DNA of 64,000 nucleotides from contig OZ219753.1 of the NCBI GenBank assembly GCA_964291315.2, forward strand, positions 2,592,001-2,656,000. The letters run 5' to 3'. The notes under the pieces were generated by a model. It saw nothing but the letters and a program-made list of their open reading frames with translations, was not told the origin of the DNA and ran no database searches. Below are positions 11,519 through 56,500 of the stretch, piece after piece (position 1 is the first letter of the stretch; the number at the start of each line of letters is the position of its first letter). Made by a program: the position numbers and the translations under genes. The stretch comes from Candidatus Poribacteria bacterium. Lineage in GTDB: Bacteria; Poribacteria; WGA-4E; WGA-3G.

Positions 11519-11560
11519 CGCGAACTATACACCTCTGAACCCCGCTGAACCACCAATCTT

Positions 11561-37885: not shown

Positions 37886-40006
37886 CTACAGCATACTCCG
37901 AATTTCGTTAATCCCCTGGATCATACGCCTCAATGCGTCAGCCAGTTTGTCGAGCTCCGCTTGCACTGCTAAATCATCTCCATGCTCTAAGGCATCTATA
38001 ACACCTGGAAAAACGACCGCGGCGTAGCCCGTATTTAGCCCAGGAGCGTAGATGAGGTGCTTAAACCACGGACGCAAGGGCAATCCTGCCTCAGTTGTCA
38101 AGCTTCGTTCCAACTGATACAACCGCTGATTTATCTCCATCACTGTAGAGAGATCCCCGGCAGCAAGGTAGCCGTAGAGCTCTTGATTTAGCAACCCGGC
38201 TGCTTGCTGCCATTCCGTCAGAAGTCTATCTAACGCTGCGACATCTTTAGCGATCTTGTTTTTTGAACCAGAGTTTTGCAAGAATTTTAAGGGAGTCATC
38301 AGGGCCGTTGCATAAGTTTCATAGTCAAACGGCAAGACATCGGCGTTAGCAAGCTGCAGCGCAAGTGTTCCCCAAATCTTTGCCATTGCTGCTTGGTACT
38401 GAAACGTTGGGTCTCCGAAGTTTTCCATCCAGTAAAAGTTGTCTTGCATAGCGTGATAGACACCGTAGGGGCCACCGAATCCCATACTGACCGAGGAGAT
38501 ACCGGCATGTCCAATAAAAGGCGAGTGATCCGAACCGCTTCCGAGGTTCCCCACTTGTGGGATCTCCGTGCCTTGTCTCATTCTCCAACTTTCGTAAACG
38601 GGTTTCAGCGTCCGGGGGTCAATGACTTTTTGTGTTACCTCGCGAATTAATTCCTGCAGCGATGGTATCGCGCTTACATAGAACTCCTTACCAGTTGCTG
38701 CGATGTCCACGTTCAAGTACACAACGGCTTTCTGCTGGAGCGTCGATTTCAACTCCTCAACCCATTCACTTGAGCCCAAGACACCGAATTCCTCAGCGTC
38801 CCATGCGGCGAAAACGATACTCCGCTTTGGACGCATGCCGGCTTTGGCGAGTTTTCCTAAGGATTGTGCGACTTCTAATAGTGCAGCCGTGCCGCTTCCT
38901 GGATCCGCGGCACCATAAATCCAAGCATCGTGATGGTTGCCTAATATAACCCACTGGTCTGGATATTCTGTGCCTTCTAAGGTAGCGATGACGTTGTAAA
39001 TTGGACGGATGCTGTGATCACAACGGACTTTGAGGCGCACTTCTGCTGGTCCCGGGCCGATGTGATACGCAAAGGGTAAACCGCCTTGCCATTCCGCGGG
39101 GACGTTGGGGCCCGCGAGCGCCTTCAGAAGTGGTTCTGCGTCTCTATAGGCGAGTGGGACGACAGGGATCTTGGGCAGATCTGTGGCATCCGCAATCGTG
39201 ATTCTCTCGGCGTCTGCTGTCGCTGCCCATCCCGGTGTGAGCGGATCACTGGCGTGCTGGAAGATGTATTTGACCGTTCCACGTTGTATCGCATCAGCGG
39301 AACGCCATGGCCCCTGGGGATAAACATCTCCACGCATATAGCCGTCATCGGCGGGATCAGAGTAAAGAATCAAGCCAACAGCACCGTTATCGCCAGCGAC
39401 TTTGGCTTTCACACCGCGATAGCTGCCTCCATACCGCGCAATACAGATTTTCCTGTTTACTGAGATACCTCGGGCACTGAGAATTTGATAATCCTCAGGT
39501 AACCCTCTGTTGACATAGACGAGCTCAGCGGTTACATCGCCATCGGGTGAATAAGCGTTATATCCGGCAACGATGTCGGTTTCATAAGAGTCTTTATCCC
39601 ACTCCCAACTTGCCTCTTTGCCAAAAGCGACATACTCGTTAGGCGAAACCAGCTCGACATGCACCTCAAGTGGATACGGAAGGTAGACTTTATATTCATA
39701 CATCTCCACCTTCAAACCGTAGCTCTCAAACGTGTCACGAAGATACCTTGCCACCTTCTGGCTATTCTCAGTTCCTGCAAGGTGCGGTTCTTCACTGAGA
39801 TGCCGTAATTTATACCGGCATCCCTCAGCTGAAATCTGTTCTCGGAAAGCGTTCTCATATTGTTCTTGTGTAATCGCGTTTTCCGCTGTGAAACCGCGCA
39901 CCCCGGAAACGTCATTGGGAAAAAATGTAAATACAACAAGGTAACCAGAAACACAGACAATGAGTCTCCACGTCTGCTTTCGAAAATAAAAAATATCTAT
40001 TAGCAT
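37886..40006 (-). CDS. M28 glutamate carboxypeptidase II-like peptidase (PA and TFR-dimer domains)
   Basis: PHLAG, GNHHDAW, DPGSG, WDAEEFG..GSSEW, GSGSDH, YH, WFKHLIYAP. Confidence 0.92.
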   Translation of the reverse strand: MLIDIFYFRKQTWRLIVCVSGYLVVFTFFPNDVSGVRGFTAENAITQEQYENAFREQISAEGCRYKLRHLSEEPHLAGTENSQKVARYLRDTFESYGLKVEMYEYKVYLPYPLEVHVELVSPNEYVAFGKEASWEWDKDSYETDIVAGYNAYSPDGDVTAELVYVNRGLPEDYQILSARGISVNRKICIARYGGSYRGVKAKVAGDNGAVGLILYSDPADDGYMRGDVYPQGPWRSADAIQRGTVKYIFQHASDPLTPGWAATADAERITIADATDLPKIPVVPLAYRDAEPLLKALAGPNVPAEWQGGLPFAYHIGPGPAEVRLKVRCDHSIRPIYNVIATLEGTEYPDQWVILGNHHDAWIYGAADPGSGTAALLEVAQSLGKLAKAGMRPKRSIVFAAWDAEEFGVLGSSEWVEELKSTLQQKAVVYLNVDIAATGKEFYVSAIPSLQELIREVTQKVIDPRTLKPVYESWRMRQGTEIPQVGNLGSGSDHSPFIGHAGISSVSMGFGGPYGVYHAMQDNFYWMENFGDPTFQYQAAMAKIWGTLALQLANADVLPFDYETYATALMTPLKFLQNSGSKNKIAKDVAALDRLLTEWQQAAGLLNQELYGYLAAGDLSTVMEINQRLYQLERSLTTEAGLPLRPWFKHLIYAPGLNTGYAAVVFPGVIDALEHGDDLAVQAELDKLADALRRMIQGINEIRSML

Positions 40007-40263: not shown

Positions 40264-40956
40264 ATGACTGCTAGGATTTTAATTGTAGAAGATGAAACGG
40301 ATATCGTAGACCTGCTGCAGTATAATTTACAAGAGGCTGGATTTGAAACGGACTACGTTCGGAACGGGGCGGATGCCCTGCATCGTGCTGTTGAAAAATC
40401 ACCAGACCTCATCTTGTTAGATCTAATGCTTCCAGAGGTAGATGGCCTTATTGTTTGTCGTCTATTGAAAAACGACCCAAGGACTAAAAACATCCCGATT
40501 GTTATGGTAACCGCTAAAGCTGAAGAGCGGGACCGTATCGCAGGTCTAGAACTAGGTGTGGACGACTACATCACTAAGCCGTTCAGTCCAAAAGAGGTAG
40601 TCCTACGGGTTTCAGCCGTGTTGCGCCGCATCCACACCGGCGAGCAGACAAAGGAGACCAAGCAGATCCAAAGGCACGGATTAACCATTGATCTTGATAA
40701 ACATCAAGTCCTGACCGAAACAGGGCCGATTGACCTCACTGCTACCGAGTTTAAACTTATCACACTTTTTGCACGTTCACCCGGACGTGTCTTTACCCGA
40801 GATATTCTAATGGATGTGATATGGGGCGAGGAATATTACGGCATCGATAGGACCGTAGACACACACGTCAGCAGGCTTCGCCGCAAGCTCGGTCAATTCG
40901 GGAATCATGTAGAGACGGTGCACGGCGTTGGATATCGGTTTAAAGAGGGGATCTGA
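40264..40956 (+). CDS. phoB: OmpR/PhoB family response regulator, probably PhoB
   Basis: VEDE, LDLMLP, KPF, LTATEF, RTVDTHVSRLR, TVHGVGY; linked to pst/phoU. Confidence 0.8.
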   Translation: MTARILIVEDETDIVDLLQYNLQEAGFETDYVRNGADALHRAVEKSPDLILLDLMLPEVDGLIVCRLLKNDPRTKNIPIVMVTAKAEERDRIAGLELGVDDYITKPFSPKEVVLRVSAVLRRIHTGEQTKETKQIQRHGLTIDLDKHQVLTETGPIDLTATEFKLITLFARSPGRVFTRDILMDVIWGEEYYGIDRTVDTHVSRLRRKLGQFGNHVETVHGVGYRFKEGI

Positions 40957-41003: not shown

Positions 41004-42095
41004 TTGAGATTTCCTGGAGCAAAATTGTTAAAAACACGGGTATTTAAAAGATATTCCGAAAAGGTTGGACTGCCACCCGGAACCCTTGTTTATGTCGGAG
41101 AAGAAGACACAGAACCTGTTCGGATTACGGTTACTGATTATAATGATACATATTTTCATAAAGAAGAGGTTCAAACGATCCAGGAATGTTTACATTTCAC
41201 ATCATCCGAAACCGTCACGTGGATTCACATCGAGGGAATTCATGAAACAGAAATCATTGAAGAGATTGGAGAGCACTTCGAGGTCAATCACCTAGTCCTT
41301 GAGGACTTGATGAGTCCAACCCAACTTCCCAAAATAGAGGTATATGAAGGTTATGTTTTTATTATTCTCAAAAGCCTCTACTATGAACCCACAGCCTTAG
41401 GCGTTTCCAGAGAACAGATCGGACTTATTATCGGTAAGAATTTTGTGGTATCTCTCCAAGAAACTTCTACGGGCCTCTTCACATCAGTTCAAAATAGGAT
41501 CCAAAAGGCCCAGGGCAGAATCCGGAAGATGCATTCTGACTACCTCGCGTATGCTTTGATAGACGTTATTGTTGACTACTATTTTATGGCCTTGGAACAA
41601 CTCAGCGAGGCAATCCTAGTGGTGGAAGAAGAAGCCATCGCGGACCCTACACCAGAAGTTCTAGAAAAAATCAATATCTTGAGAAAAGAGTGCCTTCTTC
41701 TACGTAGACCGCTGCTCCCATTCCGTAACGTGGTTAATGAGATTTTAGCAGCTGAGATTCCGCTGCTTGGAAAAGAGACATATCTGTATTTTCGCGATGT
41801 TTATGATCACCTGATTCAGGTGATCCATACATTAGAGATGCTTCGGAGTACAGTCTCAGGACTATTTGATACCTATACCTCGGCGGTTAGTCATCGAATG
41901 AATGAGGTTATGAAGGTTCTGACTATTGTTGCTACATTTTTTATTCCGTTGACCTTCATTGCCGGTATTTACGGAATGAATTTCAAATCTATGCCAGAAC
42001 TTGAAATGCCATGGGGATATCCTGCTATCTTGTTAGTCATGGTGGGCATCAGCATCTTTATGTTCATCTATTTTAAACTCAAAAAATGGTTCTGA
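41004..42095 (+). CDS. corA: magnesium/cobalt transporter CorA
   Basis: GLPPGT, YFRDVYDH, MNEVMKVLT, YGMNF, MPEL. Confidence 0.95.
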   Translation: MRFPGAKLLKTRVFKRYSEKVGLPPGTLVYVGEEDTEPVRITVTDYNDTYFHKEEVQTIQECLHFTSSETVTWIHIEGIHETEIIEEIGEHFEVNHLVLEDLMSPTQLPKIEVYEGYVFIILKSLYYEPTALGVSREQIGLIIGKNFVVSLQETSTGLFTSVQNRIQKAQGRIRKMHSDYLAYALIDVIVDYYFMALEQLSEAILVVEEEAIADPTPEVLEKINILRKECLLLRRPLLPFRNVVNEILAAEIPLLGKETYLYFRDVYDHLIQVIHTLEMLRSTVSGLFDTYTSAVSHRMNEVMKVLTIVATFFIPLTFIAGIYGMNFKSMPELEMPWGYPAILLVMVGISIFMFIYFKLKKWF

Positions 42096-42386
42096 ATTTC
42101 TTTAAATCAACCGAAACTTTATCAGAGTCAACAAGTAAAACGAGAAAACCTATAAAGATGTGAGTACTGCATACCGAATGCATCTGATTTAGTCTAACCA
42201 ACCTGTAATACCTATCCGCGAACCGATTGGCAACGGATAATAGTGAACCACTGGCAGAAAAGTAATACTATAAGTATACGGCAACTTTGCGGGTTACGCT
42301 ATAGCTGTCGGACAAAGTGCTTAGAGCACGGGTACCAACATTATTGACGATAGTTGTATCTGACAAATACCAGAAAGGGGAATACA

Positions 42387-43286
42387 ATGTTTGCAGATGT
42401 CATAGCAAGTTTGGAAAACTTCATAAGTTCTATAGTTAACTCGCCCTTCAGAGGCATCATTTTAAGTGTTTTCACAATCTCGACTTTACTTATTATCAAG
42501 CCAATTTCAGGGTACTTTGTCAAAAGGTACGTCTACCAAAACGCTCAAGTGGAATCAAAAGCCCAAAACTTCATGGCGGTCTGGGGGTATACCTGGACGG
42601 CGATCATCGCTATCTTTGGAATTATTAGTCTCAGTGGCTCGTTGAAAACGCTGGGTATCTCAGCAGGATTTCTGGGGATGGTTTTGGGCTAGTCCTTGCA
42701 GGCACCGGTTACAGGGATCGCGGCCTGGTTGATGCTTATTTTAAAACGGCCCTTCAAGATTGGAGATCGTGTCATTATTGCCGGTGTCACAGGCGACGTT
42801 ATGGATATTACCTTAACGCACGTCATCTTGAACCAAGTTGGATGAACTGTCTCTAGCGAGGAACGTTCGGGGCGCGGCATCCTCATCCCGAATGCAATTC
42901 TTTTTGGCCAGACAATTACCAACTACACCTTAGAAGAGGAGTATATTTTGGTTGAGGGGCCCGTACGGATTACCTTTAAATCAGATTGGGCGGAAGCAGA
43001 ACGAATTCTGTTGAGGGCGGCACAAGAGGTTACAGCCGACATTATCAAAGAGATCGGAGAGGAGCCTTTTATTCGCGCGGAACTCTTTGACGCAGGAGTA
43101 ATGATGCGACTGCGCTACAAAACGCGCCTAGTAGATCGAGCAAAAAGTCTGAGTGATATTGTCAAAATTATCTTTCATGAATTCTCAAAGAATAAAAACG
43201 TTGCGTTCTGTTACGCACACTCAGAAATCATCTATTCATGGAAAGATCAAACCGCCCTGCTGGGGAATCTACGTGAGGTCCAATGA
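42387..43286 (+). pseudogene. MscS mechanosensitive channel with two in-frame stops
   Basis: Single frame with TAG 42690-42692 and TGA 42843-42845; RPFKIGDRV, IPN motifs. Confidence 0.85.
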
Positions 43287-44182
43287 TGTTGTGGGACATC
43301 TGGAACGCTCTTCTAAATTTCAAATATATTTCTATGGTCTGGATGGTCTTGGCGGTCATCAGTGCTATTATCGTCTATTTCCGCCTGACCATCCAAATGC
43401 GGAAGTTTACGGACGGCAGTGCCTATAGAAGCAAGAACGTCGATAGATTCTTCGTTATCTGGTGCTACGTCTTCATGTTTTCGATAGGTGGACTGATCGC
43501 CTTTCTCTTTTCAGATGTCTTCGGCTTGATGGGGTTGTCTTTAACCTTTATTATGACTCTCACGGGTTGGGGGATCCGAAATCCCGTTACAAACTTAGCA
43601 GCATGGTTACTAATTATTCTTAAGAGACCTTATCATATTGGAGATCGTGTCATCTTAAATACAATTATTGGCGATGTAGTGAACATCTCGGTTATGCATA
43701 CACAGTTAGAGCAAGTTGGAGGCACGATCGGCGGTGAAGAAAAGTCAGGTCGGAGTGTCCTGATTCCCAACCAACATCTTTTCAATTGGAACGTAATTAA
43801 CTACACACGGAACGGAAAATACATTCTCGATGAGATAATCCTTCGATTGACATATCGTTCCAATATAGCTCGCGCCGAACAAATTCTTCGTGAACAAGCA
43901 ACAGAAGTGACAAGAGACATATGTACTGAGACAGGTGAAACCCCTTATGTGTTATTTGAGTTCATTCCATCTGGAGTCGTCGGCAAGCTAAGATACCGTG
44001 TTATTGCTGCAAAACGGTAGCAAACCTCAACATTAATCGTGGAACGGATCTCCAAAGCATTTCTGGGCGAGGAGCGGATTGAGTTCGCCTACATGAAAAG
44101 TGAAGAACTATTAAGACCCAAGGAGGCACTATCGATGCCTCCACAATACCTATGTACCCAACAGCTTGATGAACACCATTAG
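43283..44182 (+). pseudogene. MscS mechanosensitive channel with in-frame TAG
   Basis: RPYHIGDRV, IPN; TAG 44018-44020 followed by an in-frame tail that aligns with the paralog C-terminus. Confidence 0.75.
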
Positions 44183-44199: not shown

Positions 44200-45372
44200 A
44201 TGAACGAATGGATTCAACGATTAGCAGCTCTATTTGAAACTCCTATTATTCCATCAGATACTCCCGTAAAAGCCTGGCAAATTGTCGTGTTAATTTCGAC
44301 TTTGACGGTTTCCTTCGCACTTGCTGGACTTTTACGTGGATGGTTCCGCAGCATGTTTCATCGGCTCCGAATTTCACAAAACATCGAAGGCCGACTGCTT
44401 GCATTTCTCTTCCTCACTGTTATGGTTGTGGGAACTATTTTGGGATTACGGTTTGCAGGCATAGGAACAGGAATACTTACCAAATTCTTTCACTATCCGT
44501 TGACAAACCTCTTTCAGCCAGCTGCTGCCGACACAGCAGGCGGCGAGACAAACAACCTAACCTTAGCACGTCTGTTCTATGCGTTCGTGATTGTTTTCGG
44601 GATGTTCATTCTGTCGAAGTACGCACAATGGGCGCTACGGAAACAAGTGTTACAAGCGTTTCAAATTGCAGCGCATACCCAATTTGTCCTCCTCCGCTTT
44701 CTTCATTTCAGTCTTATCAGCCTGGGTGTTATTATCAGCCTGAGCGCTATCGGGGTAAGTTTCACGAGTCTTGCATTGATCTTCGGTGGGCTGAGTATCG
44801 GCATCGGTTTCGGTTTACAAAATATTGCATCCAATCTAATCTCAGGGTTTATTCTCATCTTTGAACGCCCTATCAAAATCGGGGACCTTGTCGAGATTAT
44901 GGACATTAATATTTTCGGTAGAGTTAGCAGTATCAACCTTCGTTCAACGATCATCGTCTCACTTGACGAGAAAGAGATTATCGTTCCCAATTCTCAATTG
45001 ATTACAGAATCCGTTCATAACCTCACACACGCAAATAACTTTTTCCGACTCAATGTCGATGTAGGAGTTTCCTACGGTTCGGACGTAGATCTCGTTAAGA
45101 GAGTGCTCCTTGAAGCAGCACACGAACATCCGCAAGTCATTAAAGAACCGAGATCTACTATGGAGAGCGTCACCGCCCCATTTGTTCGTTTCGTGAATTT
45201 CGGAGAGTCGTCCTTAAATTTCCGTCTATTGGTGTGGATTCCAGACTCTTTTCAGCGTTTTGATATTGCCAGTGACCTTCATTTCATGATCTGGCACAAA
45301 TTTCAAGCGTACGATATTAAAATCCCATTCCCACAACGCGATGTCCATTTTTATTCAACAGAAAACAGGTAA
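44200..45372 (+). CDS. MscS mechanosensitive channel, intact
   Basis: GIGFGLQNIASN.ISG, ERPIKIGD, IVPNS, FGESS, IPFPQRD. Confidence 0.93.
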   Translation: MNEWIQRLAALFETPIIPSDTPVKAWQIVVLISTLTVSFALAGLLRGWFRSMFHRLRISQNIEGRLLAFLFLTVMVVGTILGLRFAGIGTGILTKFFHYPLTNLFQPAAADTAGGETNNLTLARLFYAFVIVFGMFILSKYAQWALRKQVLQAFQIAAHTQFVLLRFLHFSLISLGVIISLSAIGVSFTSLALIFGGLSIGIGFGLQNIASNLISGFILIFERPIKIGDLVEIMDINIFGRVSSINLRSTIIVSLDEKEIIVPNSQLITESVHNLTHANNFFRLNVDVGVSYGSDVDLVKRVLLEAAHEHPQVIKEPRSTMESVTAPFVRFVNFGESSLNFRLLVWIPDSFQRFDIASDLHFMIWHKFQAYDIKIPFPQRDVHFYSTENR

Positions 45373-45495
45373 TGCTTGGTGATTAGCAGCCAGCTCACGA
45401 CTGCCAACAAGAGTTGTCTCGAAAGTGCGTTTCTATAGGAAGGCGATCAGGAAGCACTTAGATTAGGAAATCCATCCCCGAACTGCTGAATGGGT

Positions 45496-46137
45496 CTAAG
45501 AATGCCGGATGATGTTGCCCTTGACGAGATAGTAGACCTCTTCGCTGATGTTTACTGCAAGGTCCCCCACCCGTTCGAGATGCCGGAAGAGAAGAAGGAT
45601 GCTGATACCCGGTGGGACGAGTTTTGGATGTTCAGTTAGAATGGCCAAGAGTTCATAGAGCATCTTTTCATAGATATCATTAACCTCGTTGTCACGTTCT
45701 CGGACCTCTAAAGCGAGTTCAGCGTTACGATTGACGAGCGCGTCCAGTACATCTTTTACCATGGTCTGAATCACTTGTGCTACATACGGCAGATCCACGA
45801 AGGGTTTAACGGGCGGATACTCCAACAATTCAAGACTCCGTTTCGCAATAGCAACGCTCTTATCGGCAAGCCTTTCAATGTTGATACTAATCTTCATTGC
45901 CATCGTCAGAAAGCGGAGCTCAAAGGCGACTGGTTGATAGAGTGCGATCAGTTGGATACAGGATGACTCGATCTCGTTTTCAAACTGATCAATCTGATCG
46001 TCCGTATTAATCACCGTCTGTGCTAACGTCTCGTCTCGCGTTAAAACCGATTCAATGGCTTGACGTAGCATTTGCTCGGAAAGCCCCGCCATTTCCAAAA
46101 GTTTATGTTGAAGTTCTCTGATTTCGTTTGCTAACAT
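45496..46137 (-). CDS. phoU: phosphate signalling protein PhoU
   Basis: D..ID, YQPVAFELR, ER.AD, ERVGD..VNI.E. Confidence 0.93.
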   Translation of the reverse strand: MLANEIRELQHKLLEMAGLSEQMLRQAIESVLTRDETLAQTVINTDDQIDQFENEIESSCIQLIALYQPVAFELRFLTMAMKISINIERLADKSVAIAKRSLELLEYPPVKPFVDLPYVAQVIQTMVKDVLDALVNRNAELALEVRERDNEVNDIYEKMLYELLAILTEHPKLVPPGISILLLFRHLERVGDLAVNISEEVYYLVKGNIIRHS

Positions 46138-46166
46138 TTTTCAATTATCTGCTTCTGTGGTCTCGC

Positions 46167-46946
46167 TTATCCCATTCTGCCTGTTACGTACTGTTCGGTT
46201 CTGCTATCTCGTGGGTTGGTAAAAATTTTCTCCGTGGCCCCAAATTCAATCAATTCACCACCGTAGAGGAACCCGGCAACATCAGAGACGCGCGCAGCTT
46301 GTCTTCTTTTGTTAGTCGCAAAAATAAGTGTACAATCGTTTGCCAGCTCCCGCACAAGTGTCTCAATCTTAACAGTCTCAATAGGATCGAGCTCACCACA
46401 CGGCTCATCAAATATCAAAACTTCTGGTTCAGCGGTCAAAGCGCGTGCAATACAGAGCAGTTGTTGTTGTCCAGTGGACAACTGTTCAGCGGTTTCGTCC
46501 AAGATGTCCCTGACATCATTCCATAGCCCGGTCCTTCGGAGACTTTTCTCAACGACGCTATTCAACGCCGAGTCCCGCCTCACACCGGAAATTCGAGCCG
46601 CGTATGTCACATTTTCTTGTATAGAGCCTTGAAATAGAATCGGTTTTCGAAACACCATCCCGATTTTTTTTCGAACAGTTGTGGCATCCTGATCGACATA
46701 CAAAGATCTGCCCTTGAAAAGGATTTCCCCGGTGAACCTGAAATTCGGTGTAAAGTCGTTGAGTCGATTGAAACATCGGATGAGTGTGCTTTTGCCGCAG
46801 TTGGTGGGGCCCATAAGTGCGGTTACTCGTTTCCGTTGAATTTCAAAAGAGAGATTTCCGAGAATTTGCTTATCGGCATACCAGATATTTAGGTTACGAA
46901 CAGTGAGAATAGATTTCTTTTTTGCAGTCATCATAGCTGCTAACAT
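46167..46946 (-). CDS. divergent PstB-like ABC ATPase (copy 3)
   Basis: GPTNCGKST, LSTGQQQ, IFTNPRD.RTEQYVTGRMG; lacks Q-loop Gln and H-loop His. Confidence 0.8.
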   Translation of the reverse strand: MLAAMMTAKKKSILTVRNLNIWYADKQILGNLSFEIQRKRVTALMGPTNCGKSTLIRCFNRLNDFTPNFRFTGEILFKGRSLYVDQDATTVRKKIGMVFRKPILFQGSIQENVTYAARISGVRRDSALNSVVEKSLRRTGLWNDVRDILDETAEQLSTGQQQLLCIARALTAEPEVLIFDEPCGELDPIETVKIETLVRELANDCTLIFATNKRRQAARVSDVAGFLYGGELIEFGATEKIFTNPRDSRTEQYVTGRMG

Positions 46947-46973
46947 GTATAGAAGAAAAACGAAGGCCGTGTG

Positions 46974-47804
46974 TCATGCCAAAACAGAGGAATGTCTCTC
47001 AGCAAGGAAGCTTGAGAAAATACTCAATAGTAATGCGCAGCCTAAAAACAACACAAATTTGTCCAACATCTGTCCACATTGCGCGGGACGACTCCATATA
47101 TAGATACCGACGAACAACGCCGCGGCAGCAAGCGCACAAGACATTGCACGACATCCGCCTGAAAGTATCCCCGGGAGTGAAAGCGGCACGATATGCCCCA
47201 TTAACACTTGTCGTTGGTTAGCGCCGAGTGCATAAGCAGCTTCACGAATCGGTATCGGCACAGACCAGAGCGCCGCTTGTGTCGTCTTAATCGTCCTTGG
47301 CATCACTAACAAAATAAAGGTCAGTGTTGCGATGTAAAACAGGGACGTATCCCCTCGAAAAGTGCTTGTCTTTAAGGAAGAAGTGTCTAAACCTCCAAGG
47401 GCCAGAGGCACCTCAATCCCTGTGAAAACGCCACTATAGGGCAGAAAGATTGCGGCTGCTAAAAGTCCATATAAGATCGAAGGGACACTGCTTAAAATGC
47501 TGACATGACTCTCTATGAAACGCCGAACCCAGCTAGTTTCTCGAAGCCACTCCTCCACGTAAAAAGCACAGAGCACCGCAAACACAATTGCCAAAAAACT
47601 GATGTAGAGAAAAAAATAGAGATCGTTGAGCGGATTCGATGGCGGCTCCGACTCACGGACTACTGACGATAGTTGCACATCAGAGACGGGTAGTTTTGAC
47701 AGGACGTACCATATTGGAATGAACATCGCTCCCAATATAACGAGAGCTATACCCCGCAAAGCAAATTTTTGCCTCGGGTTTGAACGCATCATTAAGGTGT
47801 TCAT
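46974..47804 (-). CDS. divergent PstA-like permease (copy 2)
   Basis: SVPSILYGL, REAAYALGA EAA motif; GETAP motif absent. Confidence 0.75.
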   Translation of the reverse strand: MNTLMMRSNPRQKFALRGIALVILGAMFIPIWYVLSKLPVSDVQLSSVVRESEPPSNPLNDLYFFLYISFLAIVFAVLCAFYVEEWLRETSWVRRFIESHVSILSSVPSILYGLLAAAIFLPYSGVFTGIEVPLALGGLDTSSLKTSTFRGDTSLFYIATLTFILLVMPRTIKTTQAALWSVPIPIREAAYALGANQRQVLMGHIVPLSLPGILSGGCRAMSCALAAAALFVGIYIWSRPAQCGQMLDKFVLFLGCALLLSIFSSFLAERHSSVLA

Positions 47805-47921
47805 AGTATCGGTCCCCTTATCAGATCTCATCTGTCAGTTATTAGTACCCACAAGAAGTATTTATAGTAGTTGTGTACGACTGACATAGCAAATGTTGAT
47901 CCTAAGAGACGAGGACTTCCG

Positions 47922-48707
47922 TTATCCGTATCGCATCTGTACATAATCCGCTGTTTTGGGGTGTTGTGGTGTCTGAAAAAGTGCTTGTGTCTCCTCGTGC
48001 TCAATAAGTTCCCCAAGAAACATAAAGATACACTCTTTGCTCACGCGTCGCGCTTGTGCCATGTTATGGGTCACAATTAAAAATGTGTATATCCCGGCAA
48101 GGGCTTCCATCAATTCTTCAACAGCCCGTGTCCCTTTAGCATCCAATGCTGAACACGGTTCATCCATCAGGATAATTTTCGGTTTCAGCGGTAACAGACG
48201 GGCGATACAGAGTTTCTGTTGTTGTTCAAGCTGAAGTGAGGTAGCACGCGCCTTCAATTTATCTTTCAAATCGTCCCACAAGAAAACGGAGGTCAGCGCT
48301 TCTTCAACAATTTGGTCTGATTCCGTTCGTACCAGACTCCGCAAAGGGGAGTGAATCCGCAAACCGAATAAGACATTCTCATAAACCGAGATCGGCAACG
48401 GATTCGGGCGCTGGAAGACCATGCCGACTGCTTTTCTGAGCTCTGGTAAAGAGACATCTGGATCGTAGATATTTTTACCGAGAACCTCAATTTTCCCGAC
48501 TGTGGTGACATTACCGTAACGCTCATTGACACGGTTAAAACAGCGGAGTAGGGTTGACTTGCCACACCCTGAAGGCCCAATAAGAGAAGTTATCTGACCA
48601 TCACGGATTTTCAGGTTGACATCAATAAGCGCTTGAAAATCTTCATACCAGAGATTGAGGTTTTCGGTTTGAACGCTATAATTTAAGGACATAATTTGTG
48701 TACTCAA
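47922..48707 (-). CDS. pstB: phosphate ABC transporter ATPase PstB (copy 2)
   Basis: GPSGCGKST, GMVFQRPNP, MDEPCSALD, VTHN; signature altered to LQLEQQQ. Confidence 0.9.
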   Translation of the reverse strand: MSTQIMSLNYSVQTENLNLWYEDFQALIDVNLKIRDGQITSLIGPSGCGKSTLLRCFNRVNERYGNVTTVGKIEVLGKNIYDPDVSLPELRKAVGMVFQRPNPLPISVYENVLFGLRIHSPLRSLVRTESDQIVEEALTSVFLWDDLKDKLKARATSLQLEQQQKLCIARLLPLKPKIILMDEPCSALDAKGTRAVEELMEALAGIYTFLIVTHNMAQARRVSKECIFMFLGELIEHEETQALFQTPQHPKTADYVQMRYG

Positions 48708-48779
48708 TTTCTCAACGTGTGTCTCTAGATCAGTTATAAGGTGTCTAAGTACTTGTGGACTGTGCCCTAAAAAACCAGT

Positions 48780-49565
48780 TTACCCGAAATTTCCATTGAT
48801 GTAATCATAAGTGGAACGGTTTGTCGGATTGGTGGAAAAGATTACATCTGTTCTATCAATCTCAACGAGATCACCGTTGAGCATAAAGGCGGTTCGGTCT
48901 GCTAAGCGTTTTGCCTGTTGAACGAGGTTGGTAACGAGAAGAATCGTCATTTCTGTACGTAAGGTTTTCAATACCTCTTCAATGCGCATCGTTGTAACCG
49001 GATCAATAGCAATAGAAAATTCATCAAGGCAGAGAATCTCCGGTTGATGTGAAAGGGCACGCGCGATTGTGAGGCGTTGTTGTTGACCGCCCGACAGCTT
49101 CGTACCGAGCGTATCTAGCCTGTCCTTGACTTCATCCCACAAGGCTGCTTGCTGCAGGCAGCGTTCGACGATCTCATCCAATTCCGATTTTGAGCGAATC
49201 CCTGCTGTCCGCGGCGCGAAGGCGACGTTATCGTAGATCGAAAGCGGAAGGCCTACGGGCAAAGGGAGCACCATACCGATGCGGCGGCGCAACCCATACA
49301 CATCGCTAATTGTGCTAATGTTTGCACCGTCGAGCTTTACAGAGCCTCCTACGGTCGTTTCTGCTGTCAATTCCAACGTTCTGTTGATAACTCTTAAGAG
49401 CGTGGTTTTACCGGACTGTGCAGGACCGATGATACCGAGAATTTCATTCTTATAAACATTAAAAGAGATGCCGTTCAGAGCATGTTTATCCCCGTAACGC
49501 ACCGTCAAGTTGTTAATTTCAATTAGAGGTTCGTTTCGTGCCCCGTTACTGCGATTCATGTTCAT
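48780..49565 (-). CDS. pstB: phosphate ABC transporter ATPase PstB (copy 1)
   Basis: GPAQSGKTT, ALWDEVKDRL, LSGGQQQR, YINGNFG. Confidence 0.88.
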   Translation of the reverse strand: MNMNRSNGARNEPLIEINNLTVRYGDKHALNGISFNVYKNEILGIIGPAQSGKTTLLRVINRTLELTAETTVGGSVKLDGANISTISDVYGLRRRIGMVLPLPVGLPLSIYDNVAFAPRTAGIRSKSELDEIVERCLQQAALWDEVKDRLDTLGTKLSGGQQQRLTIARALSHQPEILCLDEFSIAIDPVTTMRIEEVLKTLRTEMTILLVTNLVQQAKRLADRTAFMLNGDLVEIDRTDVIFSTNPTNRSTYDYINGNFG

Positions 49566-49570
49566 ACTTC

Positions 49571-50326
49571 TTATTCACTTTTCGGATTGCTAGATGCCGT
49601 AGTCCGATTTTCCTCTTTAGCTTCTTCTCCTATTTCGCGCTCCACACGTGCCTCGGTCAAAGCCGAGGCTAACAAACCAGAGGGAATTGCGATAAGTCCG
49701 ACACCAACAAGCGTGACAAGCGCAGTGAAAACCTTCCCACCCGCAGTTTCTGGGTAGACATCGCCATAACCGACGGTCGTCAATGTCACGACAGCCCACC
49801 ACATTGAATCGAGGATAGATCCGAAGGCTTCAGGTTGGCTATCTTTTTCAAAATAGTGGATCCCACATGCAGCGAGATAGACAAGCATCAGCGATAAAAT
49901 AACGAGCGCTAAGAGCTCCTGCTGGATACCCCGGAGCGCCGCTGCGAGCCGGTCCACTGCGAGAATAAAACGTGTCGCCTTGAAAATTCTGAAAACCCGT
50001 AAGAATCGGAGTACACGTAGCACACGAAACCCCGGGACAAGGAACAGAGAAGGCAAAATCGAAAGTAAATCAATTATGCCGTAGAAGCTAAGAACGAAGT
50101 CCCGTTTTTTGGTTTCAATGTAGACGCGAAGAGCATATTCTATTGAAAATAGAACAAAAAACACCCAGTCGAGCAGAATAAAAAGTGTCGCATATTCCGC
50201 TAACTCCCACACATGGCTATCGGCTTCGAGCACAAAGGTGACAGCGGAGGCAAGAATTAGAAACTGGATGACGGCGGTAAATATGTTACCTTCAATAATA
50301 TCGCGTAATTTCTCTTTTTTCGCCAT
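49571..50326 (-). CDS. 6TM voltage-gated potassium channel (ion transporter)
   Basis: S4 RVLRVLRFLRVFRIFK; WWAVVTLTTVGYGD selectivity filter. Confidence 0.92.
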   Translation of the reverse strand: MAKKEKLRDIIEGNIFTAVIQFLILASAVTFVLEADSHVWELAEYATLFILLDWVFFVLFSIEYALRVYIETKKRDFVLSFYGIIDLLSILPSLFLVPGFRVLRVLRFLRVFRIFKATRFILAVDRLAAALRGIQQELLALVILSLMLVYLAACGIHYFEKDSQPEAFGSILDSMWWAVVTLTTVGYGDVYPETAGGKVFTALVTLVGVGLIAIPSGLLASALTEARVEREIGEEAKEENRTTASSNPKSE

Positions 50327-50368
50327 GAACGTCTCTTTCTATCAGGAGTAGCGTTCACGACACTACCT

Positions 50369-51286
50369 CTACCACTTCTTCCGGGTTCTAAGATAAACCC
50401 TCAGCACAATCGCAGCCGCGTTGACAAGTAGGACACTCCCTACAAGTGCTATTGCAGTCCCGTAGGGAATTCCTTCGCTAACATCCGGTACCTGTGTTGA
50501 AATTGTAAAAAGATGTAGAGATAATGCCATGCATTGTTCCGTTATATTATAGGCGAAAATATCTCCTTCTGCAATAGCTTTATAGAAGACTGCCCCGGTG
50601 AACATGATAGGGGCCGTTTCGCCAGCTGCACGCGATACTTGTAAAATAACGCCTGTCAGGATCCCACTAATTGAATTCGGGAGCACAATACGGCGAATCG
50701 TTTGCCAGCGCGTAGCACCAAGGTTCCAGCAGGCCTCTCTAAACGACATCGGCACCGCTTTAAGCGCCTCTGTGGTGCTAGCGATAATAACTGGAAGTGT
50801 CATGATTGCCAGTGTAAGCGAGGCCGCGAGTATCGACTCACCTAACCTTGCAAAAAGTACAAAGGCACCAACTCCAAACAAGGCATGAACAATACTCGGC
50901 ACTCCCGCAAGATTGACAACGGCCAAATTTGTGATACGTGTAAACCAATTTTCACGAGCATACTCGTTGAGATAGACTGCTGCGAATACACCGATGGGGG
51001 CTGACACCAATAGCGAGACCACTACCAAATAGATTGTCCCAAGAAAGGGGGCCCAAAGTCCACCTGCACGCATGTTGTCCTTCGGGTTCGTAAACAAAAA
51101 TTCCAAAGAGAGGACAGGCAGCGCCTTGTAGAGCAGGTAGCCGATAATGAGAAGCAACGGGATAATCATCAGGCTTGTTATTACAAGTAGAAGCACCCGT
51201 ACCCCATTTTCTATTTTCCGTTTTTGTCGAGCAACCGCTGTTTCCGTAAACATGGCGTGTGACGATGCCTGCGCGTCAGTGTTCAT
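50369..51286 (-). CDS. pstA: phosphate ABC permease PstA
   Basis: YLNEY, NLAGVPSIV, SRAAGETAP. Confidence 0.93.
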   Translation of the reverse strand: MNTDAQASSHAMFTETAVARQKRKIENGVRVLLLVITSLMIIPLLLIIGYLLYKALPVLSLEFLFTNPKDNMRAGGLWAPFLGTIYLVVVSLLVSAPIGVFAAVYLNEYARENWFTRITNLAVVNLAGVPSIVHALFGVGAFVLFARLGESILAASLTLAIMTLPVIIASTTEALKAVPMSFREACWNLGATRWQTIRRIVLPNSISGILTGVILQVSRAAGETAPIMFTGAVFYKAIAEGDIFAYNITEQCMALSLHLFTISTQVPDVSEGIPYGTAIALVGSVLLVNAAAIVLRVYLRTRKKW

Positions 51287-51329
51287 ACGTCTCTACCTAC
51301 TTTTACAAAGACTCCTGTGTTATATTCCA

Positions 51330-52235
51330 CTATTCTTGACGGATTCCTTTGATAGCTAAATCAGCAATGAGATTCACAGCAAACGTGATAGTAAAAAGGA
51401 GAATACCGATAATAAAAAGGACTTGATAGTGTTCACCACCTCTAGCGACTTCCCCTAATTCTGCAGCGATTGTTGCTGTCAATGTACGGATCCAAGAGAG
51501 GGGCCCTGACGGAATGTTAACGGAATGCCCGGTCGCCATCAGGACAGCCATCGTTTCGCCGATAGAACGTGCTGCACCGAGCAGCACTGCTGCCAACAAT
51601 CCATTTTTCGCAGCAGGTAGAAGCACGCGGTAGACCACCTGCCATCGAGTTGCTCCGAGCGCCTCTGCCGCTTCCCGGTAGGAGTCAGGTACAGCTTTGA
51701 GGGCATCTTCAGCTATGGACACAATAATAGGAACGCTCATCAAAGCGAGCATGATGCTCCCATTTAGCATGGTTAAGCCGATGGGGGCGTTGAACACAGC
51801 AATAATCAGCTGATTCATCAGCGTCAACCCGATGAAACCCCACACAACCGAAGGGATAGCAGCAAGCAATTCAATGATAATTTTAAACATCTCTCTGAAC
51901 TTTGGACTACAGAATTCCGAGACAAAGATGGCTGCGCCTAGGCCAAAAGGAACTGCAAGACACATGGCTAAAACCGTAACGCTAAAAGTGCCTACAATTA
52001 AAGCGAAAGCCCCATATCGTTTGTTGTTCAGAGAAGTTGGTTGCCATTCTACACTTGTCAGAAACTCTTTCAAATCTAAACCGTTGAAGAGAAAACCTGC
52101 GCCCTCTCGAAATACAAAGAAAAAGATACCGAATACAAAGATAATCGAACTAATACCACAGAGACGGATAAATAATTCGATGGCTGTTTCAGAGAACGAC
52201 AGATCCGCAGTGCTTTTTTTGCGTAGAAAATTCAT
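51330..52235 (-). CDS. pstC: phosphate ABC permease PstC
   Basis: ELLAAIPSVVWG, REAAEALGA, RSIGETMAVLM. Confidence 0.93.
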   Translation of the reverse strand: MNFLRKKSTADLSFSETAIELFIRLCGISSIIFVFGIFFFVFREGAGFLFNGLDLKEFLTSVEWQPTSLNNKRYGAFALIVGTFSVTVLAMCLAVPFGLGAAIFVSEFCSPKFREMFKIIIELLAAIPSVVWGFIGLTLMNQLIIAVFNAPIGLTMLNGSIMLALMSVPIIVSIAEDALKAVPDSYREAAEALGATRWQVVYRVLLPAAKNGLLAAVLLGAARSIGETMAVLMATGHSVNIPSGPLSWIRTLTATIAAELGEVARGGEHYQVLFIIGILLFTITFAVNLIADLAIKGIRQE

Positions 52236-52241
52236 GTGTTT

Positions 52242-53171
52242 TTACGAGCTCTCTAACGGTACAAAACCGAGTTTCTCAACAATTGCCTGACCCGCTGCGG
52301 ATAGAATCCAATCAAGATATACTTTAATTTCGCCTATAGGTTCACCGAGGGAATACATGTATAGCGGACGAGCAATAGGGTAGGTCTTTGCAAGAACGTT
52401 TTCAAGGGTTGGCGGGTAATAAGGCGAATCCTCATCAACAGCAACCGCTAACATTTTAACGTGTGAGGTTGCATATCCCATTCCGCTGTAACCCATCGCG
52501 CACGGCGTTCTTCCAATTACCTCTACCACATCTTTTGAACCGTGCAAATCTAATGAGCCGATGCGAAAATCTCTGTTTTTCCCTAGAAGCGCCTCGCGAA
52601 AATAGAAGTAGGTGCCAGAATTAGACTGCCGACTGATGCGAATAATTTTGTCACTCGGACAGCGGCTATGTTTGATACCGAGCTGACTCCACCGGGTTAT
52701 CGTGCCTTTCTCACCATAAATTTCTGCAAGTTGTGGGATCGTGATTTTATCAAACGGCACATCGGGATGCACATAAACCGCAAGGGCATCGTAACCGACA
52801 ATAAATTCCTGTGGAACTTTACCCGTGTTTTGCTCCGCCTGCTCTAATTCTTTCGGTTTAATCTGGCGACTACAGTTGGCAATATCTACGGTTCCGTTGA
52901 TGAGCGCGGCAACGCCTGTGCCAGAACCACCACCTGATACTTCTACTGAAGCCCCGCTAGTCACACCGCTGTACATCTCCGCCCATGCTTGCGCGAGGTT
53001 CACCATTGTGTCCGAACCTTTGTTTTTGATGATGACATACGAAACCTCGCTACTTGCCTCATCTCCACTATCTTTGCCAGAACAACCGTTGATAACAAAT
53101 ACACACGCCAAAACGAGTATAATTTTTATGATTAGGTAACTGAACCAACTATCCCGCCGCATCCGCATCAA
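52242..53171 (-). CDS. pstS: phosphate-binding lipoprotein PstS
   Basis: Lipobox INGC; GSDT, GGGSGTG, SR, SGT..YF, YPIARPL. Confidence 0.93.
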   Translation of the reverse strand: MMRMRRDSWFSYLIIKIILVLACVFVINGCSGKDSGDEASSEVSYVIIKNKGSDTMVNLAQAWAEMYSGVTSGASVEVSGGGSGTGVAALINGTVDIANCSRQIKPKELEQAEQNTGKVPQEFIVGYDALAVYVHPDVPFDKITIPQLAEIYGEKGTITRWSQLGIKHSRCPSDKIIRISRQSNSGTYFYFREALLGKNRDFRIGSLDLHGSKDVVEVIGRTPCAMGYSGMGYATSHVKMLAVAVDEDSPYYPPTLENVLAKTYPIARPLYMYSLGEPIGEIKVYLDWILSAAGQAIVEKLGFVPLESS

Positions 53172-53200
53172 TTTGCCTCTCTTGAAAGATTTTGAATTAA

Positions 53201-53234
53201 ATTATAACACCCAATTGTTACGAAAATAAGACAA
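53201..53234 (-). promoter_or_regulatory. Pho-box-like site plus -10 element upstream of pstS
   Basis: Minus strand TTGTCTTATTTTCGTAAC-10 bp-TATAAT; 13/18 match to the E. coli Pho box with canonical spacing. Confidence 0.7.
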
Positions 53235-53355
53235 AATTCGGAATTTTTGTAATTCGCTATCACAATCTGAAAAAAGGATGCCCAAAGTCCTTACCTGCTA
53301 ATGAAAAATAAACGAGTGAGCAGAAGAGGAAAAGAGGTCGAGAATTCTCTGATTT

Positions 53356-53384
53356 TTGACAATCAAACAGCTGCATGTTATAAT
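53356..53384 (+). promoter_or_regulatory. sigma70-like promoter of RM gene
   Basis: TTGACA-17-TATAAT with extended TG. Confidence 0.7.
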
Positions 53385-53567
53385 AATGTTATTAACAAAT
53401 AAGAAGGTGCCGACAGCAGAACGCGGGGCATGCATTATCCCACTCAAATTGTAAATCTCATCAGCAGATAGCTTGGGTTTAGAAACGCTTTTTTACAAAA
53501 CCGAAAATCTCGACCGCCAGTTTGATGAATATCGCGCTTCAGGAAAATAATAGGACTGACATCTAAG

Positions 53568-56500
53568 ATGAACAAAGAAAAAGATGAAGAAAGAAAAACC
53601 ATTCGCACAGCCCTAGCGGCAATGGCCACAGGCGACCTGCTAGAAACGTCAAAGGCACTGCTTGCAACGCTCGGATACCGCAGCGAACGTACGCTCGAAC
53701 TCTCCGGAACGGTAGACGATTTCATTCAGGAATTTCCAGCGCCCACCCCTAATACTAAAACCGAACAAGCCCTCCGAGAAGACGCCTCATCCGTCAAACT
53801 TCTCTTCCAATTCACAAGCGACGAAGTCTCCGATGCCCTGCAGCAGACACTCTTTGAACCCGAGGACTTCGAGAAGGGGGATGTGCAGAGCTTCCTTTTC
53901 TACGCCGTTGACCTGAAAAAGAAGGCCTATTCCCGCACAGAATATGCTCAGTTGACACGCGAGATCAATAAACGTCTGATCGCACCGAGCGTCGTCTTCT
54001 TCCGGGTTGAAGACCATCTGACAGTTGGCTTCACCAATCGCCGTCCGAGCAAAACGGACGCGGCCCGGGATGTGTTAGGACACGTCACACTGATTAAGGA
54101 CATCCGGCTGAATGGACCGCATCGTGGACATGTGGACATTCTCTGCGATCTCTCCCTAGAGGCGTGTGTAGCATGGATGACTGCCAAGAGGCAAACGGAG
54201 AACTTTGAAGGGTTGCTCGCCGCGTGGCTAGCGATGCTGGATACCGAGGCACTCAACAAAGCGTTCTATCGGAGGCTCTTTGCGTGGTTTCAATGGGCAG
54301 TAGCGGAGGCAAAGTTCCCAACAGACGAGGCGCGGATCTTGAATCCCGAGGAACACGTCATCCGTCTGATCACACGGCTTCTGTTCATCTGGTTCTTGAA
54401 GGAAAAGAGGCTTGTTGCTGAGGCGTTCTTCAACGAGGTAGAGATGCAAGAGGCGCTAACAGAGGAGGCCATGACAAGCGGCGACGCTTACTATCGCGTG
54501 GTGCTGCAAAATCTCTGCTTCGCCACATTGAACACAGAGATAGGCAAGCGCGGGTTTAGCAGCAAGAATAACACGGGACATCGGAACTTTTCAAGGTACC
54601 GGTACAAGGATCAGATGCAATGCCCGGATCAGTTGCTAGATCTCTTTGCGGAAACTCCTTTTATCAACGGCGGTTTGTTCGAGTGCCTCGATAGCGAGGC
54701 AGCAGTACGTGACGGGGGGTACCGGATAGATTGCTTCTCTGATACGGATTACAACAAGGTGAGTCTTCCGGACGTTCTCTTCTTTGACGCGGAGAGAGGC
54801 TTGCTCTCGCTGTTTCAGGCGTATAAGTTCACAGTTGAGGAGAACACACCGATAGAGCAGGAGGTGGCGTTGGATCCCGAGCTGCTGGGCCGGGTTTTTG
54901 AAAACCTGCTCGCTGCCTACACGCCCGAGACAGGTGCGACCGTCCGGAAGCAAACAGGCTCGTATTACACGCCGCGCCCGATTGTAGACTATATGGTGGT
55001 AGAGTCGTTAGTTGCTGCACTCTCTGCGAAATGTAGTCCTACTGATAAGGATGTGGAGCTTTGGAAGGAACGGCTGCACTATCTCTTAGACTACGCGCAG
55101 GCGTTTGAGGACGCGTCTGAATGGTTTGACGATGTTGAGACGGCTAATGTCGTGCATGCGATTTCAGATCTAAAAATATTGGATCCCGCGGTGGGATCAG
55201 GGGCTTTTCCAATGGGAATGCTGCATAGGTTGACGCTTGCACTCCGGCGACTTGACCCCGACAACAGTCGATGGGAAAAACTGCAGAAGCAACGGGCTGC
55301 GCAGCGAGCCGAGGCGGCGTTTGAGACGCAGGATGACCAGACACGGCGTGAGGAACTTGTTGACATCGACGAGACTTTTAAACGTTACCGAGATTCAGAC
55401 TTCGGACGGAAGCTATACTTAATTCAGAATAGCCTCTTCGGTGTAGATATACAGCCCGTGGCATGTCAGATAGCGAAGCTCCGTTTCTTTATCTCACTTG
55501 CAATTGAACAGGAACTAGTGCAAGGCGCGGCTAACTTCGGCATCAAGCCGTTGCCGAATTTGGAGACGCGCTTCCTTGCTGCGAATACGTTGATAGGACT
55601 TCACGGGGATCCGACCCTCATGAGCGAAAAGGCGCTAGATTTAGAGCGTGCCCTGAGCGAGAATCGAGAGCGTCATTTTCACGCCACCACTCGTCGGCAA
55701 AAGCTAGCTTGCAAACGCAGAGATGCGGAGTTGCGAGGTGAATTAGCGGTGGAGCTGAAGAATATCGGCATGCCTGCGGATGCCGCGGAAAAGATCGCAC
55801 ATTGGGATCCGTATGACCAGAATGCTGCTGCGAACTGGTTTGACCCCGAATGGATGTTTGGGGTTGCCGAGGGGTTCGATGTGGTAATTGGCAACCCGCC
55901 GTATGCTAAAAGCGAGCATGTGTCCGAAAACTATCGCGAAAAACTGAAAACTCACTACGGTTGGGTTGGCGATTTATATGACCATTTCATCTTTGCCGGC
56001 TTTGCCTTTGTCTCTGATGAGGGACTTTTTTCTTACATCGCCAATGATAGTTTCGTGACCTTTTCAACAAAAAGGAGGATTCGAGACCTATTTTTGGAAA
56101 ATCAATTAATTCGCCTTGTTAAAGCCCCCGCAAATACTTTTGAAGCCCAAATATATACTGCTATTTTTATTTTGTTGAAACAAAACGCAAGCGATCCACA
56201 TAGCTACATGAGCGGCGAAATGAATTTTCCCGATTTCCAATACCGTTCAAATGGGGCGGTAGATTATACGACGATTCGCAAAATTCCAGATCATAAATTC
56301 CTGCTTAGTGGGAAAAATAACTGGGTATTGAGACTCTTTAATTTTGAAAATGTTGAAAAATTCTGTTCCGTTTTGGATACTGGAATCCACTCAGGAAATG
56401 TCAGACCCAAGATCTTCTTTAAGGAAAACAACGGTAGAAGGCATCGTCTTTTACAAGGCAAGCAGATTGAAAGGTACGCCCTTCAGTGGGATTCCCCGAA

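Follow-up and report, generated by a model that had tools for sequence, protein, structure and literature searches.

The closest described relative of the system discussed here is the phosphate importer of Escherichia coli, PstSCAB2, together with PhoU (structures 9k3s, 9k3x and 9k3y). The system itself is an operon with three PstB paralogues, called here B1, B2 and B3, found in a window of 64,000 nucleotides (contig OZ219753.1, positions 2,592,001 to 2,656,000) of the genome of a Candidatus Poribacteria bacterium (assembly GCA_964291315.2), which is a sponge symbiont. By the window we mean this whole stretch, and the coordinates given below refer to it. Both importers belong to the same family, characterized by a binding protein, two permeases and an ATPase of the PstB type, and the alignment of B2 with E. 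coli PstB spans the whole of B2 (E 1.2e-69). The difference lies in the ATPase: in E. coli, PstB is a homodimer with two consensus ATP sites, whereas the Poribacterial operon appears to encode two diverged subunits, B1 and B2, that would form one consensus and one degenerate site. None of B1, B2 and B3 has the complete set of ATP-binding cassette (ABC) motifs, unlike the canonical PstBs of sister genera.

Pairs of PstB proteins are not new in themselves. An earlier note on this DNA, drawn up from the sequence, had set out from the homodimeric E. coli PstB; that background is correct for E. coli and has to be amended for the Firmicutes, for which heterodimeric pairs with intact motifs are described, PstBA/PstBB in Bacillus subtilis and PstB1/PstB2 in Enterococcus faecalis (PMC12096839). 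The B. subtilis heterodimer is presented as a model (PMC11466899), and unequal roles are reported for the two E. faecalis proteins (PMC12096839). These organisms also have two adjacent pstB genes in one pst operon, but in the pair described here the motif losses are complementary.

Complementary losses are familiar from another branch of the ABC proteins. Each ATP site is described as a composite of the Walker A, Walker B, Q-loop and H-loop motifs of one nucleotide-binding domain (NBD) and the signature of the other (PMC3971661). In exporters with a degenerate site, for which we compared TM287/288, TAP1/2, CFTR, BmrCD, PatAB and Rv1273c/72c, a catalytic change in one subunit and a signature change in the other are reported to fall in the same composite site, so that a single site hydrolyzes ATP, and this asymmetry is presented as frequent in exporters and as their hallmark (PMC3971661, PMC7756269). 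These exporters are of type IV, with half-transporters in which the transmembrane domain and the NBD are fused, whereas the operon encodes a binding-protein-dependent importer of type I with free NBD subunits. The details differ as well: in TM287/288 the catalytic Glu is changed to Asp (PMC3971661), whereas B1 keeps the Glu and has lost the Q-loop Gln and the H-loop His. Among importers, one degenerate ATP site has been suggested, by sequence analysis, for RbsA and NupO (PMC11466899); in these, the NBDs reside in one polypeptide whose second Walker A lacks the Lys, and both family and substrate are other ones, whereas B1 and B2 are separate genes, each with its Walker A Lys. A search of the literature, with most subscription journals outside its coverage, returned no natural, widespread Pst importer or PstB pair with complementary defects. 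The motif LQLEQ was not found in connection with ABC proteins, and no relevant account of phosphate pst genes in Poribacteria turned up among the titles and abstract openings on which relevance was judged. An ABC heterodimer with a degenerate site, as predicted here for a phosphate importer of type I, is thus apparently undescribed.

The operon occupies positions 45496-53171 on the minus strand and consists of nine closely packed genes, in the order pstS-pstC-pstA-channel-B1-B2-PstAx-B3-phoU. These genes, with a regulator gene located about 4.5 kb beyond phoU, are the following:

52242..53171, minus strand: pstS, phosphate-binding lipoprotein (TIGR02136, 213.7 bits, above the cut-off of 206.6; PBP_like_2)
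51330..52235, minus strand: pstC permease (TIGR02138, 269 bits, cut-off passed)
50369..51286, minus strand: pstA permease (TIGR00974, 254.6 bits, cut-off passed; aligned to 9k3x_A)
49571..50326, minus strand: Kv-like six-helix K+ channel (Pfam Ion_trans, 5.2e-33; Ion_trans_2)
48780..49565, minus strand: B1, PstB paralogue (TIGR00972, 287.9 bits; LSGGQ intact, catalytic side dead)
47922..48707, minus strand: B2, PstB paralogue (TIGR00972, 310.7 bits; catalytic motifs intact, signature LQLEQ)
46974..47831, minus strand: PstAx, decayed PstA-type permease (TIGR00974, 87.8 bits against a cut-off of 193.45)
46167..46946, minus strand: B3, PstB paralogue (TIGR00972, 302.8 bits; catalytic side and signature degraded)
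45496..46137, minus strand: phoU (TIGR02135, 198 bits, cut-off passed)
40264..40956, plus strand: PhoB-like OmpR-family response regulator (TIGR02154 (PhoB) as the best NCBIfam match, 254.7 bits against a cut-off of 296.2)

For all three PstB paralogues, the PstB equivalog TIGR00972 is the best-scoring family, and its cut-off of 343.2 bits is reached by none of them, nor by any other protein of the host genome, which is 95% complete. Their genes stand with pstS, pstC and pstA both in the window and in the related loci. The pstA of the operon keeps the pore motif SRAAGETAP and has an Arg at the position of E. coli R220. As for the start of B2, most orthologues begin 5-7 residues inside the TTG of the open reading frame (ORF) in the window. 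A further candidate PstB of the host genome (232.6 bits) was rejected, being a GlnQ-like ATPase that adjoins an amino-acid permease.

The motifs were read from an alignment of B1, B2 and B3 and from that of B2 with E. coli PstB (structure 9k3x). In B2, the catalytic side is complete (GPSGCGKST, MVFQRP, ILMDEP, SALD and VTH), and LQLEQ takes the place of the E. coli signature LSGGQ. B1, which is 36% identical to B2, has the opposite constitution: the signature is LSGGQ, and the other motifs read GPAQSGKTT, MVLPLP (Q-loop Gln replaced by Pro), LDEF, IAID and VTN (H-loop His replaced by Asn). Position by position, the catalytic-side substitutions of this pair are confined to B1 and the signature substitution to B2. 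B1 still retains the A-loop Tyr, the Walker A Lys and the Walker B Asp-Glu. B3 reads GPTNCGKST, MVFRKP (Q-loop Gln replaced by Arg), LSTGQ, FDEP, GELD and ATN (again Asn for the H-loop His). The three ORFs, each matching TIGR00972, and all the motif letters listed in the earlier note are borne out by these alignments. To them can be added the change at position 4 of Walker A, where B1 has Gln and B3 has Asn instead of Gly, the altered D-loops of B1 (IAID) and B3 (GELD), and the degenerate PstA-like permease encoded between B2 and B3, here named PstAx.

Is this pattern an accident of one genome? The conservation of the B1/B2 motif pattern far exceeds chance. All 78 B1 orthologues have the Q-loop Pro, the H-loop Asn, the two signature glycines, the Walker A Lys and the Walker B Asp-Glu; the A-loop Tyr is present in 77 of them, and the fourth Walker A position is Gln in 77 and Lys in one. 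Each of the 81 B2 orthologues has every catalytic residue, the Q-loop Gln and H-loop His included, together with Leu-Glu in place of the Gly-Gly of the signature. These states are near-invariant across Poribacteria and at least six other phyla. Within the 41 related genomes searched, B2 is 87-91% identical in all 24 genomes of the same genus and 72-77% identical in three further genera of the order, and the remaining genera have a canonical PstB alone (45-48% identity). When layouts were compared over twenty extracted regions, the full nine-gene arrangement was found in 10 of 10 loci of the genus, the other genera with B2 had pstSCA-B1-B2 alone, and the rest had an ordinary pstSCAB-phoU operon with a fully intact set of PstB motifs. 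A wider scan, with one genome per species, gave 80 loci. The 45 genus-like Poribacterial loci all carry B1, B2, PstAx, B3 and phoU. The other 35 come from further Poribacteria and from metagenome-assembled genomes (MAGs) labelled KSB1, Zhuqueibacter, Verrucomicrobiota, Desulfobacterota, Myxococcota (Myxococcales), Acidobacteriota, Bacteroidota (Cytophagia), Calditrichota (Calditrichaceae) and, in one case, "Heliobacteriaceae".

The two defects also travel together. Among 80 B2-type genes, B1 lies directly upstream in 74 and farther upstream in the same locus in 3, and the contig ends in the remaining 3; B1 is therefore in the same locus for 77 of the 77 genes whose context is visible. The separated pairs, with longer gaps between B1 and B2, are those of loci L103, L102 and L109 only, and in the first (L103:4434-6848) an IS605-family OrfB/TnpB gene (6.6e-31) and the gene of a TPR protein are inserted in the gap.

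A deeper sister lineage behaves in the same way. It came to light when B1 was searched against 1.84 billion cluster representatives and the best 150 matches were classified: 102 were fully intact PstBs, 15 had lost the Q-loop and H-loop residues and kept the signature, 9 had kept the catalytic motifs and lost the signature, 18 were incomplete and 6 were others. For some of these matches, identity to B1 or B2 is no more than 44-52%. When metagenomes were then scanned with P0161, a representative whose signature is defective, 80 loci were obtained (L142-L221). Of the 30 signature-defective copies of this lineage, 24 adjoin an upstream copy with the Q- and H-loop residues lost and LSGGQQ intact, 6 lie at contig ends, and no exception was met; the 49 fully intact relatives in the same scan either have both flanks visible and no PstB neighbour (38) or lie at contig ends (11). 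Over both lineages, the catalytic-defective partner is in the locus for 101 of 101 signature-defective copies with visible upstream DNA. The defective signatures of the sister lineage vary (LSAEQ, LTEEQ, LSPEQ, LPLDQ and others), and a count from the listing shows Glu or Asp in place of the second signature Gly for 29 of 30 copies; an acidic fourth position at this frequency argues for a selected state and not for random decay. In the partner copies of this lineage, position 4 of Walker A varies among G, K, R, N, S and H.

How old is the pair, and where does B3 come from? A tree of 72 sequences, computed with IQ-TREE after removal of all motif columns, unites the upstream copies, that is, B1 and its sister lineage, in one clade (support 100/99) in which B1 is nested (100/100), and the downstream copies in another (99/88) in which B2 is nested (100/100). 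FastTree on the same 72 rows agrees. By this topology, the asymmetric pair goes back to essentially a single origin, from which it spread as a cassette; pstS-pstC-pstA-B1-B2 would be this Pst cassette, passed on horizontally. B3 forms a clade of its own (100/99), whose closest grouping is with canonical PstB from sister Poribacteria (99/96). This placement led us to reject an origin of B3 by duplication of B1; its likeness to B1 arose independently.

Selection was estimated as the ratio of nonsynonymous to synonymous substitution rates (omega, or dN/dS) by the Nei-Gojobori method, over 41 genome pairs with dS of 0.02-1.0 in all nine genes. From the most to the least constrained, the values were:

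PstA 0.038; B2 0.049; B1 0.061; PstC 0.069; PhoU 0.071
B3 0.110; PstS 0.113; K+ channel 0.128; PstAx 0.242

The ranking is unchanged in a larger, more saturated set of pairs. All values are well below 1, and pseudogene behaviour is seen in none of the nine genes; on B3 and PstAx the constraint is relaxed but still present. A further view of B1 and B2 is offered by four related Poribacteria genomes, two of them closed and 99% complete, in which they are the only PstB-family matches: each cassette has a single B2, scoring about 320 bits, and a single B1, scoring about 280 bits, and the next match is a GlnQ-like protein. In these genomes, the pair must then be the Pst ATPase.

Taken together, these data make it a well supported prediction that B1 and B2 form an obligate asymmetric heterodimer, in which one site is consensus and the other degenerate. 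In such a dimer, the Walker A, Walker B, Q-loop and H-loop of B2 would face the LSGGQ of B1, head to tail, and make up the single hydrolytic consensus site; the crippled catalytic side of B1 would face the LQLEQ of B2 and make up the degenerate one. Both defects would thus fall in one composite site, because ABC dimers are described as head-to-tail (PMC3971661). The signature of B1, invariant despite the catalytic losses of the same protein, is hard to explain unless it completes the site of B2. As B1 retains the A-loop Tyr, the Walker A Lys and the Walker B Asp-Glu, its site probably binds nucleotide without turning it over, and it may act as a hinge or latch, by analogy with exporters of the TM287/288 type. 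Each cycle of phosphate import would then consume a single ATP. The earlier note had arrived at the same heterodimer with one competent site, and had suggested examining whether the losses co-vary and whether dN/dS is near 1. Wherever the context is visible, the complementary losses co-vary without exception, and the omega values of B1 and B2, far from 1, indicate strong purifying selection; with the conservation across phyla and the role of sole PstBs in four genomes, this part of its proposal is supported.

The second half of the operon tells another story. The nearest relative of B3 is the PstB of the intact pstSCAB-phoU operon of sister genera (54-56% identity). Over 46 orthologues, B3 has always kept the Walker A Lys and the Walker B Asp-Glu, and has always replaced the first signature Gly (by I in 20, T in 13, N in 9, R in 3 and F in 1); Walker A position 4 is Asn or Lys in all 46 and the H-loop residue Asn in 44, and the Q-loop position drifts (R in 28, Q in 6, and six other residues in the rest). 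The joint loss of hydrolysis motifs and of part of the signature is what one would expect of a homodimeric ATPase that ceases to hydrolyze, and not of specialization as a complement. PstAx, in turn, has a Pfam BPD_transp_1 domain (51.7 bits), and its nearly invariant coupling-helix EAA motif, REAAYALGA, resembles that of the canonical PstA of sister genera. As a PstA it nevertheless falls short: the score is low, the GETAP pore motif is absent in 46 of 46, and the Arg of the E. coli R220 position is absent in 13 of 46, including the copy in the window, which has Cys. E. coli R220 is described as one of two residues that set phosphate specificity (PMC12976172). An AlphaFold2 model of PstAx, modest in confidence (predicted local distance difference test score, pLDDT, 64.9), has its best fold matches in E. 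coli PstC and PstA (E 5.6e-7, template-modelling score about 0.5), and the length of the ORF ranges from 190 to 350 aa across orthologues. Only 29 nt beyond B3 is phoU, the sole PhoU match in the host genome, and a PhoR-like kinase is encoded on another contig (289 bits against a cut-off of 334).

We explain the operon as a fusion of two phosphate-transport systems. PstAx-B3-phoU would be the rump of the original canonical pstSCAB-phoU operon of the lineage, from which pstS and pstC have gone. A Verrucomicrobiota MAG (L135, about 3400-12500) carries a B1/B2 cassette followed by a complete canonical pstS-pstC-pstA-pstB-phoU set with intact PstB motifs, and this arrangement is a plausible model of the ancestor of the fused Poribacterial operon. 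In this explanation, PstAx and B3 would no longer transport and would be kept to serve PhoU, as its anchor in the membrane or its partner in sensing, either in Pho signalling or in control of the transporter. E. coli PhoU is reported to bind both PstB and PhoR (PMC4423584), and PstB mutants unable to transport are reported still to signal (PMC5775613); by analogy, these observations favour a signalling or regulatory role of PstAx-B3-PhoU. The signalling variant of the importer that the earlier note had imagined would thus survive in an altered form, as a reading of B3, PstAx and PhoU. The predicted B3-PhoU complex gave a score of 0.18, against a mark of 0.32, which is no verdict either way.

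PhoU takes another form elsewhere. Outside the genus of the window, the cassette is usually preceded by a gene for a 375-aa PhoU-LMWPc fusion, upstream of pstS in most of the loci L106-L140. The fusion, as seen in L051:2076-3203 (plus strand), has two PhoU domains (8.5e-32) and an LMWPc phosphatase/ArsC-like domain (1.2e-9). The host genome has no such gene.

With these elements, the whole explanation can be stated: a Pst cassette that spread horizontally, and in which B1 and B2 form the ATPase as an obligate heterodimer, has been joined to a rump, PstAx-B3-phoU, with a retained signalling or regulatory role. We give this two-part explanation a probability of roughly 0.72. Judged by itself, the first part is very likely, and the retained role proposed for the rump has somewhat less than an even chance.

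Which other explanations deserve consideration? One is a second complex in which PstAx and B3 stand in for PstA and B1 beside PstC and B2, and which either transports in an altered way or has a purely sensing function. The EAA coupling helix, which docks the NBD, is kept in PstAx, the modelled fold is that of a type I importer permease, and PstAx and B3 are retained together in 45 of 45 loci. On the other hand, PstAx lacks GETAP in every orthologue, and in 13 of 46 the specificity Arg too, and we consider such an exchange quite unlikely.

Another is that B3 and PstAx are functionless relics on the way to loss, and that the B1:B2 pair alone matters. It is true that both proteins have lost key motifs, that the ORF of PstAx varies widely in length, and that their rates of evolution exceed those of the working counterparts two- to sixfold (omega of 0.11 and 0.24 against 0.05 and 0.04). 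However, relics would hardly be found open in all 45 related loci and in the window, with omega well below 1, with the Walker A Lys and Walker B Asp-Glu present in 46 of 46 copies of B3 and with a nearly invariant EAA motif in PstAx; this makes the explanation improbable.

The earlier note had proposed that B2 can pair with either B1 or B3, with one competent site in each case and hence two variants of the importer. B3 does share the operon of B1 and B2, is under purifying selection and has converged on a catalytic side like that of B1, with the fourth Walker A Gly replaced, the Q-loop Gln mostly lost and Asn in the H-loop. Yet the first signature Gly is lost in every copy and drifts among T, I, N, R and F, whereas the LSGGQQ of B1 is invariant, so that the signature of B3 does not seem to be maintained as a catalytic complement, and a B2:B3 dimer would lack a fully consensus site. 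Besides, B3 descends from a canonical, homodimeric PstB and not from B1, and is always accompanied by its own decayed permease. A swappable partner is accordingly a claim that did not hold up, and we regard it as very unlikely.

Least probable is a B2 homodimer that works despite LQLEQ, with B1 in an accessory or regulatory role like the one proposed for PstB1 of E. faecalis, where one paralogue is reported as essential and the other as accessory (PMC12096839). Both sites of such a homodimer would have a signature without either glycine, the invariance of the B1 signature despite lost catalytic residues fits only the completion of another subunit's site, and no locus with visible context shows one defect without the other.

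Some points weigh against our two-part explanation. The composition of the dimer is deduced from sequence logic alone. B1 keeps the catalytic Glu of Walker B, so that residual hydrolysis at the degenerate site may occur. The acidic signature is a conserved derived state and not plain decay, and the degenerate site may have another role. Related sequences are not independent, and the counts of co-variation therefore overstate the number of independent events. The contacts of B3 with PhoU and with PstAx are putative, and B3 and PstAx could replace PstA and B1 in an alternative complex. Lastly, a tree of 59 rows, without the sister lineage, joined B3 to B1 at 89/79; we attribute this grouping to long branches and convergent motif changes, and it vanished from the tree that included the sister lineage, which broke up the long branches, and left out the motif columns.

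A few observations concern the rest of the operon and its surroundings. The K+ channel gene, between pstA and B1, encodes 251 aa with a TVGYGD filter and, from the translation, an Arg-rich S4; all but one of the 45 genus-level loci have it, and in other lineages the cassette lacks it. Scans of positions 45200-53700 returned 17 promoter-like sites (11.7 +/- 4.1 in shuffles) and 10 terminator-like sites (8.6 +/- 2.3 in shuffles), none of either kind convincing between genes. The sequencing runs listed with the operon comprise four DNA runs, from one study, and no RNA run. Divergently upstream of pstS, at 53568-57062 (plus strand), is an ORF of 1164 aa with Eco57I methylase, N6_Mtase and TaqI_C specificity domains, which is type IIG restriction-modification-like. 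The operon is also flanked by two genes for MscS-type mechanosensitive channels (43283-44020 and 44200-45372, both on the plus strand), one for a CorA Mg2+ transporter (41004-42095, plus strand) and one for an M28 peptidase with a transferrin-receptor-like domain (37886-40006, minus strand). The short ORFs at 42354-42692 and 42948-43286 gave no match in Pfam.

What would all this mean for the Pst family? A bolder view, which we regard as unlikely as things stand, is that these loci represent an old, multi-phylum class of binding-protein-dependent, single-site phosphate importers, and that in the Poribacterial lineage of the window a PstA'/PstB' pseudo-transporter acts as a platform for PhoU, so that transport and signalling would reside in two physically separate complexes of one operon. 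The second site would be a conserved, non-hydrolytic latch, in which L-x-x-Glu-Gln lies opposite a Walker A with Gln, Asn, Lys or Arg. Instead of being lost, the ancestral transporter, once displaced, would have been stripped down to the catalytically dead PstA'/PstB', kept solely as the place where PhoU docks and senses.

Even short of this, the two-part explanation would have consequences. The number of ATP molecules that type I importers spend per cycle has been argued mainly from engineered mutants of HisP and MalK, and a natural single-site Pst importer, if confirmed, would be a ready-made system for testing single-site coupling in importers. There is also a lesson for annotation: databases name the ATPases of the cassette just "phosphate ABC transporter ATP-binding protein", and with such uniform naming metabolic reconstructions cannot separate working pairs, single subunits and relics. 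Finally, the remnant made of B3, PstAx and PhoU bears on the long-standing question of how phosphate status is signalled by the Pst complex and PhoU when transport plays no part; should the remnant be a signalling-only complex, nature would already have run the separation-of-function experiment.

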